The notes beneath the pieces were generated by a model. That model was not told the DNA's origin. It ran no database searches and was given only the letters and a program-made list of their open reading frames with translations. From a phage, in sequence record OZ336096.1: a stretch of 64,000 nucleotides of DNA, one strand, 5' to 3'. Below, piece by piece: positions 42,184 through 42,380 of this stretch (positions within the stretch are counted from its first letter, which is position 1; each line of letters starts with the position of its first letter). A program made the position numbers and the translations under genes.

Positions 42184-42380
42184 TTTTCATTTTAGAATTG
42201 TGCAGGTAGAGTTCTGTAGAGAAATCTGTAGAGAAAATTTTGAACTCCAAAGAGAAAATTCATTTTCAAACTGTGCAGGTAATCTCCAAAGAGCTTTTTC
42301 ATTTTCAAAACGTGCAGACCCCGCTCAGGTCGGGCAAGAAAAATCATTTTAGAATTGTGCAGGTAGGTGGGTGCAGGTGG
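42184..42380. repeat. intergenic array of four ~26 nt direct repeats (TTTTCATTTTAGAATTGTGCAGGTA and variants)
   Basis: Copies at about 42184, 42258, 42295, 42340, plus TCTGTAGAGAAA x2 and CTCCAAAGAG x2. Confidence 0.7.

Follow-up and report, generated by a model that had tools for sequence, protein, structure and literature searches.

What keeps a set of four direct repeats in place within a noncoding gap of Felix O1-like phages, and what might these repeats do? We addressed this question in a stretch of 64,000 nucleotides of phage DNA (sequence record OZ336096.1; hereafter the window), which matches ~250 GenBank Felixounavirus phages (Felix O1-like myoviruses) at 94–97% identity. The repeats form an array that takes up the upstream half of a 506-bp noncoding gap (42114–42619). 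An initial annotation of this DNA had described them as resembling iterons or an operator array, and hence as a candidate replication origin or a cluster of binding sites for a phage regulator; its sole factual error was the size of the gap, given as ~260 bp. The binding-site part of that proposal stands: invariant cores, constraint, concerted change of the copies and the lack of any RNA or coding signal indicate, at the level of sequence, that the array is likely to be a cis-acting, protein-binding DNA element. The replication-origin part fares poorly. As to its role, we tentatively favour a boundary or regulatory nucleoprotein element, in which protein binding, a phage-encoded binder and the function itself are all putative.

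The motif TCATTTTNNAANNGTGCAG has four exact matches in the window, all on the + strand (starts 42187, 42260, 42299 and 42344), so that the four direct repeats first described are confirmed; with two or fewer mismatches allowed there are six matches against 0.40 expected, a count reached in 0 of 100 shuffles. The core is 18 nt long and same-strand copies extend to 23–26 nt, with copies 1 and 4 sharing 23 identical bases (TCATTTTAGAATTGTGCAGGTAG). Its minimal form, TCATTT-N7-GTGCA, has exactly four matches in the window on a single strand. The initial annotation had suggested comparing the motif across the genome, and that comparison confines it to this locus: no further TCATTT-N7-GTGCA was found, either elsewhere in the window or in the 25 kb that complete the genome (checked in CRP22, 97% identical), making the array a single locus in the ~87 kb Felixounavirus genome. 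Each site is bipartite and asymmetric, with TCATTT and GTGCA placed ~one helical turn apart around ~7 variable bases, and is preceded by a 5-bp A- or T-tract. The array is oriented in the direction of the flanking transcription, with + strand copies in every genus, and the spacing of the copies shows no helical phasing. The short duplicated motifs noticed earlier were recovered as well, as a tandem pair of TCTGTAGAGAAA (42213–42224 and 42225–42236) and two copies of CTCCAAAGAG (42245–42254 and 42284–42293); because the latter form the 5' flank of copies 2 and 3, the true repeat unit at these two copies is ~39 bp. The parts of the array are:

42187–42209, + strand: repeat copy 1, TCATTTTAGAATTGTGCAGGTAG, conserved in all genera
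42213–42236, + strand: tandem TCTGTAGAGAAA pair in the long spacer of copies 1 and 2, moderately conserved
42245–42282, + strand: repeat copy 2 with its flank, CTCCAAAGAG-AAAAT-TCATTTTCAAACTGTGCAGGTAA, motif start 42260
42284–42317, + strand: repeat copy 3 with its flank, CTCCAAAGAG-CTTTT-TCATTTTCAAAACGTGCAG, motif start 42299
42329–42366, + strand: repeat copy 4 with its flank, GTCGGGCAAG-AAAAA-TCATTTTAGAATTGTGCAGGTAG, motif start 42344

The copy 4 unit is near-identical to a Kolesnikvirus unit (GGTCTGGCAAGAAAAATCATTTT...), and a partial fifth 3' half-site, GTGCAGGTGGG, follows at 42371–42381. The TCTGTAGAGAAA pair is replaced in Mooglevirus, in Kolesnikvirus and in a three-copy allele.

How old is this arrangement? 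The gap is syntenic, lying directly after a macro-domain gene, in Felixounavirus, Suspvirus (SUSP2), Mooglevirus (Mijalis, Sf13) and Kolesnikvirus (phiEa21-4, SPARTY), and the array is also present in a further divergent lineage (L033). At least 80% of the gap is covered in 238 of 290 GenBank phage records, and in distant Erwinia and Hafnia phages BLAST detects only window positions 42259–42361 of it, that is, copies 2–4. Among viral contigs scanned for a pair of adjacent copies, 31 loci matched, 30 of them on Ounavirinae-sized or partial contigs with the same array; a two-copy 50-bp tandem duplication with TCATTTTAACATAGTGCAG (L025, 3880–3990, reverse strand of a 10-kb viral contig) looks like an unrelated chance match. 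When 185,579 species genomes of bacteria and archaea were scanned for two copies, 13 unrelated metagenome-assembled genomes and no Enterobacterales matched; these 13, which show CRISPR-like periodicity, were rejected as array carriers. Four copies are found in almost every genome, spaced as follows:

Felixounavirus and Suspvirus: 73 / 39 / 45 bp
Mooglevirus: 75 / 41 / 45 bp
Kolesnikvirus: 37 / 37 / 39 bp
Divergent L033 lineage: 36 / 148 / 38 bp

A natural three-copy allele (75 / 45) occurs in phiWec172, BPS17L1, VpaE1_ev035, L023 and L046. TCATTT and GTGCA are practically invariant in the 80 distinct copy sequences compared, whereas the inner bases, spacers and 3' extension vary, and each copy is preceded by G plus CTTTT or AAAA(A/T); a cross-genus alignment agrees, with invariant cores and variable spacers and inner 6–7 nt. 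Two database entries are at odds with this distribution by name: this coliphage gap has a 96.8% identical counterpart in the record of 'Campylobacter phage A132' (70.7 kb) and a further match in one 'Staphylococcus' record, and both records are probably mislabelled or contaminated.

The initial annotation missed two features of the locus, namely the link of the array to a terminator and its place with respect to the physical genome end. The array's upstream neighbour, conserved in all genera compared, is the macro-domain gene, and between the two stands a strong hairpin:

41328–42113, + strand: macro-domain gene (Tk.4-like 'phosphatase'; Pfam Macro PF01661, E = 1.2e-7; phrog_335, E = 1e-113)
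42143–42193, + strand: intrinsic terminator (17-bp stem hairpin 42143–42184 plus T-tail), from terminator scan and fold

The terminator folds at −26.1 kcal/mol (z = −5.85) and corresponds to Felix O1 terminator t13, which at −21.8 kcal/mol has the largest value of the terminators tabulated for Felix O1 (PMC3185647) and is the strongest intrinsic terminator of the phage. In the window copy 1 starts 3 nt past the stem, inside the T-tail, a distance that holds in three genera; in Kolesnikvirus ~29 nt separate the stem from the first full copy. In the three-copy allele the hairpin sequence is different and the junction of T-tail and copy 1 is the same. Between the stop codon of the macro gene and the terminator sits ATATTCACA (42127–42135), a DnaA-box-like 9-mer with one mismatch that is conserved throughout Felixounavirus and Suspvirus but absent in Mooglevirus and Kolesnikvirus.

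Selection on the locus was gauged from nucleotide diversity (π), computed over 20 distinct genomes with the 73/39/45 layout (Felixounavirus and Suspvirus):

Third codon positions of the macro gene, taken as neutral proxy: 0.154
First and second codon positions of the macro gene: 0.048
Terminator hairpin: 0.018
A/T tracts flanking the copies: 0.009
Variable bases inside the motif: 0.070
Spacers between copies: 0.082
Conserved block 42421–42470: 0.042
Motif cores: 0.005–0.012, a value biased downward by the collection of sequences through the motif, which leaves the other classes unaffected

Constraint on the array thus exceeds that at nonsynonymous sites of the neighbouring macro gene, copy 3 being the least variable copy (π = 0.006), and the hairpin is likewise held well below the neutral proxy (0.018 against 0.154).

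The copies also change in concert. The base 3' of GTGCA is G in all copies of Felixounavirus, Suspvirus and Mooglevirus and T in all copies of Kolesnikvirus and the L033 lineage. As T replaces G at this position, the Kolesnikvirus copies read CTATGCACA on the bottom strand, an 8/9 match to the DnaA box TTWTNCACA; the corresponding Felixounavirus sequence, ACCTGCACA, fits only 6/9 DnaA box positions. Might the array then serve as a landing site or sponge for a DNA-binding protein of the host, such as DnaA, a nucleoid protein or a monomer of the MarA/SoxS/Rob type? Bipartite asymmetric sites ~one helical turn apart are typical of monomeric proteins with two helix-turn-helix (HTH) motifs, and the hosts are all Enterobacterales. 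The resemblance to DnaA boxes extends to the L033 copies, but no consensus DnaA, IHF or Fis site, and no GATC site, is conserved across genera at the array, the copies differ by lineage and change jointly while host factors stay the same, and the two-copy signature occurs in no Enterobacterales genome scanned. We consider a host factor distinctly improbable. A lineage-specific change in all copies, among hosts that share DnaA specificity, argues for a co-evolving binder or gene conversion between copies and not for a host factor, and the co-evolving binder suggested by this pattern is probably phage-encoded. Near-consensus DnaA boxes on the bottom strand of the 3' halves were recorded as CTATGCACA, TTATGCACG and CCTATCCACG (Kolesnikvirus L005 and L016; L069, 10611–10850).

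Is the array needed for growth? Insertion data for phage Bas63 (JohannRWettstein, MZ501086) bear on this directly, as its annotated minus-strand 'gene 96' (64142–64297) covers copies 2 and 3 together with the 3' portion of copy 1. In PhageMaP a ~100 nt barcode cassette with stop codons in every frame is placed at Cas9 cut sites, with 2–4 guides per gene. The gene 96 scores of three replicates were +0.65, +0.62 and +0.24 in S17; +0.93, +0.83 and +0.65 in MG1655; +0.57, +0.77 and +0.71 in TerY-P; and +0.98, +0.70 and +0.80 in AVAST4, compared with ~−1.3 for DNA polymerase in S17, and ~−2.3 for primase/helicase and −1.9 to −2.8 for terminase in MG1655. Gene 96 has 10 possible Cas9 cut sites, two of them inside GTG^CA cores (copies 1 and 2, at 64150 and 64223), two just upstream of copies 2 and 3, and six in the spacer of copies 3 and 4. 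Splitting the array by ~100 nt is costless in the laboratory, whichever guides were used. The PhageMaP authors describe positions ~46,000–66,000 as uniformly nonessential, and by their scores the genes downstream of the array are mostly so; because of this, loss of a boundary or regulatory element serving such genes would be expected to be neutral in rich medium.

The same insertions bear on whether the array works as RNA or protein, be it a structured noncoding RNA, an RNA-level repeat or a small repeat-containing protein. In some genomes it is overlapped by stop-free stretches of 58–110 codons, entered there as genes (Felix O1 ORF31–34, AF320576; Bas63 genes 96 and 97, MZ501086; Mijalis gene 118, KY654690; Sf13 gp58, NC_042017). 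However, no reading frame is open across the array in all genera, there is none at all in phiEa21-4, and the spacings 37, 41 and 73 are non-multiples of 3. Since no frame is conserved and insertions with stops in every frame are neutral, the open reading frames annotated over the array are very probably spurious. At the RNA level, an Rfam search returned best matches far under family thresholds, the fold of the array is no better than that of shuffled sequence (z = −1.18 on the + strand and −0.18 on the − strand, against −5.85 for the terminator), and the sole local hairpin, CCCCGC...CGGG, is destroyed in many relatives. The array moreover lies between a strong terminator upstream and the next promoter downstream. 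A role as RNA or protein is accordingly very improbable.

The main rival is an iteron-type replication origin, at which a phage-encoded initiator, bound to the four repeats, would melt AT-rich DNA close by. Weighing it requires the features at the downstream end of the gap:

42543–42571, + strand: σ70-type promoter TTGACT-17-TAATAT for the first small gene (promoter scan; an equivalent is annotated in ASO1A)
42620–42826, + strand: first small gene of the terminal block, 68 amino acids, phrog_5293 (AlphaFold2 predicted local distance difference test score 77)

Like theta-replicon iterons and the four repeats of the lambda origin, the array consists of four direct repeats of ~18–22 bp (~18–26 bp with extensions) in one orientation at a single locus, and its asymmetric sites have two conserved parts that co-evolve by lineage, with copies changing jointly as in iteron and Rep pairs. 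The copy number of four is kept across genera, yet natural three-copy alleles exist and the spacing varies over 36–75 bp without phasing, unlike the known systems. Each copy has an A/T-tract flank and a stretch of 75–80% AT lies at 42494–42554; this stretch, however, is the region directly upstream of the promoter, and as a candidate unwinding element it would be poorly conserved in sequence (π = 0.15–0.20). Theta-replicon iterons and the lambda origin also differ in having an adjacent initiator gene and DnaA or IHF sites: here no initiator-like gene was recognised nearby, the neighbours being the macro-domain protein and the 68-amino-acid protein, and no DnaA, IHF or GATC sites are kept across genera. 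The terminator to which the array is joined, itself a departure from those origins, could shield an initiation complex from incoming RNA polymerase. Replication genes are ~30 kb distant, where DNA polymerase and primase/helicase flank a region of divergent promoters, taken by the Felix O1 authors as the early start point. GC skew tracks gene orientation and does not switch at 42.2 kb, which makes it uninformative as an origin indicator and lends the rival no help. Individual origins of T4 are dispensable, and given the neutral ~100 nt insertions in S17, MG1655, TerY-P and AVAST4 an origin at this site could only be redundant, dispensable or tolerant of being split. The array is thus probably not an essential replication origin, and an iteron-type origin of any kind seems unlikely to us, though it is the strongest of the alternatives.

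The other role that the initial annotation had offered, that of an operator, was examined at the promoters. The nearest σ70 promoter is neither overlapped nor directly flanked by the sites, its −35 element lying 177 bp downstream of copy 4 (175–205 bp in other genera), and the motif occurs at no other promoter, being limited to this one locus in the genome. A scan for σ70, σ54 and other promoter classes within the repeats found none, and by eye there is no acceptable −35/−10 pair. Two further segments lie between copy 4 and the AT-rich stretch:

42367–42420, + strand: variable segment after copy 4 (π = 0.305)
42421–42470, + strand: second conserved noncoding block, AAAAGTCAACAGAAAAATTTGTAGCGGATTGAAAAATAATTCTTGATT, from the conservation profile (π = 0.042)

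The variable segment has two alleles, one with a G-rich top strand and the partial extra half-site (this window, Bas63, phiWec172) and one with a C-rich tract, CCCCTCTCCCCCTCTTACTCCCCC (Felix O1, SUSP2, Mooglevirus, Kolesnikvirus). The bottom strand of CCCCTCTCCCCCTCTTACTCCCCC has four G-runs, a possible quadruplex, or the tract could give a C-rich RNA of the Rho-loading type; the same position after copy 4 was inspected in L011, L013, L014, L015 and L016. The second block is common to Felixounavirus, Suspvirus and Mooglevirus in the form AAAAGTCAA(C/G)AGAAAAATTTGTAGCGGATTGAAAAATAATTCTTGA, contains no obvious promoter or structure, and may be part of the same element as the array.

Where does the array stand in the genome as a whole? 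On the Bas63 map the macro-domain gene closes a ~30 kb rightward transcription unit, which begins at the divergent region between DNA polymerase and primase/helicase and takes in the nrd, rII and spanin genes. Past the array, small + strand genes, all equipped with a σ70 promoter and a terminator of their own, make up a block of ~6 kb that ends at a ~0.6-kb direct terminal repeat:

48441–49030, no strand assigned: direct terminal repeat, the physical genome end (the 581-bp direct terminal repeat of Pr103Blw maps here at 91.7% identity)

From the start of copy 1 to the far edge of the terminal repeat, the physical right end, is 6844 bp, or ~7.7% of the ~88 kb genome. The order of array, small-gene block and TGTTAA-rich terminal region is also kept in phiEa21-4.

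Such proximity to a genome end raises the question of whether the array is part of the packaging signal or of the terminal repeat. Direct terminal repeats of Felixounavirus are short (581 bp in Pr103Blw by PhageTerm, 608 bp in UAB_Phi87 by Bal31), and since the Pr103Blw repeat maps to 48441–49030 the array is outside it. A few records seem to point the other way. In the record of Erwinia phage BoyaciRG1 the same 1232 bp, array included, stand at either end; the edges of this duplication fall inside coding sequence, without features there, so an assembly overlap is its most likely source. The EC106 record begins beside copy 4, but the break is inside the C-rich tract, which suggests that this tract hampers assembly. 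Two L033-lineage contigs (L069 and L070) end ~1.2 kb past the macro gene, but break at a repeated promoter element. With a 581–608 bp repeat, defined experimentally and by PhageTerm, located at 48441–49030, a separate terminal-repeat-like region 7 kb downstream in phiEa21-4, and no link found between array and terminal repeat, a packaging role is effectively refuted. In the public records OR125561.1, ON210138.1 and MG065664.1, a group that takes in BoyaciRG1, EC106 and 'Campylobacter phage A132', the BoyaciRG1 end duplication is exact and EC106 lacks ~230 bp of the gap.

The terminal repeat has a repeat vocabulary of its own. It is rich in TGTTAAGA/TTAACA, with TTAACA three times at its left edge, and holds >15 copies of CTTGTTA(A/G) or CTGTTAAGA; TGTTAA reaches 23.7 per kb there against 0.9 per kb across the window. 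A 1.2-kb noncoding region of phiEa21-4 (16472–17659), the equivalent of the terminal repeat, has the same top k-mers, and these short repeats are probably terminase or end-recognition sites. A link between TCTGTAGAGAAA and the terminal-repeat motif CTGTWAAGA was rejected as too weak, the loose pattern having 3 matches in the gap against ~0.6 expected. The small-gene block contains repeats of another kind, closely similar intergenic cassettes of ~90 bp (42827–42922, 43298–43397, 43646–43736, 44716–44816 and 45510–45602) that separate the small downstream genes and each carry a TTTACA-17-TATCTT promoter overlapping a GGGGCTTAA...TTAAGCCCC hairpin. They correspond to the 57-bp repeats of the Felix O1 genome paper and are likely to be recombination points at which gene cassettes are shuffled; metagenome assemblies break at such repeats (L069, L070).

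A position ~7.7% from the physical right end, at the edge of a block of small genes with their own σ70 promoters, in an order conserved in phiEa21-4, recalls the injection stop of T5. On that analogy the genome would be tethered or stall after its first ~8% has entered, so that takeover genes are expressed first, and a protein on the four sites (or membrane-bound DnaA in some lineages, given the 8/9 DnaA box CTATGCACA of the Kolesnikvirus copies) would pause entry or insulate the terminal block of ~7–8%. In T5 the stop signal, a conserved repeat region that is not translated, marks off the first 7.9% of the genome; Davison proposes DnaA boxes for it, the mechanism itself being unproven (bioRxiv 10.1101/866236). 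Both regions are untranslated and conserved, border a terminal block of ~8% made up of poorly conserved small early genes, and are better conserved than the genes that adjoin them. The T5 signal, however, consists of ~1.2 kb of nested inverted repeats and palindromes with paired DnaA boxes inside a 10-kb terminal repeat, unlike the four simple direct repeats here, which are 6 kb outside a terminal repeat of 0.6 kb. Although DnaA specificity is common to the hosts, Felixounavirus copies match only 6/9 of the DnaA box; insertions into the array are neutral, and we found no report of two-step entry for this phage group in the literature searched. We therefore rate a role in DNA entry as improbable, a little less so than that of a host factor.

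Any account of function has to explain the terminator link, the orientation, the single locus, the tolerance of spacing changes and insertions, and the position at the border of the terminal block, all of them observed features of the array. In the boundary or regulatory element that we tentatively favour, each copy would bind one molecule of a sequence-specific, phage-encoded protein that co-evolves with its sites; asymmetric bipartite sites ~one helical turn apart fit a two-headed DNA-reading monomer or proteins bound head to tail. Once bound, the protein might act like a roadblock that reinforces t13 or gates transcription passing it, and/or it might adjust the activity of the block's first promoters. 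The array would then mark the inner border of a ~6–7 kb terminal block of accessory genes, past the ~30 kb operon for replication, nucleotide metabolism and rII.

We looked for such a binder among the phage's own proteins. The 68-amino-acid product of the gene next to the array was rejected, its homologues being confined to this phage group and no DNA-binding fold being detected; it has no Foldseek match in the PDB at E ≤ 0.001 and no PDB sequence match. The sole recognisable HTH protein is of XRE/Cro type (window 2507–2836, − strand; Pfam HTH_3, E = 6e-10), and its Bas63 counterpart, gene 35, scored as essential in PhageMaP. The protein is encoded ~40 kb from the array, and nothing ties it to the array.

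Several observations weigh against the boundary or regulatory reading. The binder search gave no candidate, with the neighbouring 68-amino-acid protein lacking a DNA-binding fold and the XRE protein essential while interruption of the array is neutral. The hairpin is already very strong, making the need for a roadblock behind it doubtful, and a promoter 177 bp past copy 4 is far for a classical operator. Timing by reverse-transcription PCR in Felix O1 places early genes on both sides of the gap, with no clean temporal boundary. Deep conservation combined with laboratory neutrality suits many other functions equally well; and the PhageMaP lesions are insertions, not a deletion, which may lie anywhere among 10 cuts of which only two are in cores.

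Precedents for protein roadblocks exist. The stoperators of mycobacteriophage L5 are asymmetric repressor sites that block elongating RNA polymerase, ~30 copies of which are spread across a temperate genome and bound by the prophage repressor. The sites of the array are likewise asymmetric, intergenic and in fixed orientation to transcription, but there are four copies at one locus in a virulent phage. Among protein-roadblock terminators, the Sal-box/TTF-I or Reb1 arrays of RNA polymerase I and Tus-Ter are eukaryotic or chromosomal. As in those systems, a T-rich release element is followed by oriented tandem sites past a long transcription unit; unlike them, the array already has an efficient hairpin terminator, and both its binder and its polarity are putative.

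The Felix O1 genome paper (PMC3185647), which calls temporal regulation unknown, includes the terminator and some longer repeats but describes neither the array nor an origin, and we found no description of the array in the literature searched. The BstA paper, in which Felix O1 is mentioned alongside repeats, proved irrelevant, Felix O1 being simply insensitive to BstA. It thus appears that the array, a deeply conserved element of a generally familiar kind, has gone undescribed; it is unusual in being joined to a terminator, confined to a single locus and dispensable in the laboratory.

Felix O1-type phages are diagnostic and therapeutic workhorses whose transcription programme, origin and regulators are essentially unknown, as the Felix O1 genome paper itself points out. 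The array is among the most constrained noncoding DNA in the subfamily and could be used as bait for a putative DNA-binding factor; as the gap tolerates insertions, it is also a possible payload site in phage engineering. Control of DNA entry or insulation of the terminal block, if true, would be a new principle for this group, and staged delivery or insulation would then also apply to widely used myoviruses of an unrelated family whose terminal repeats are only short.

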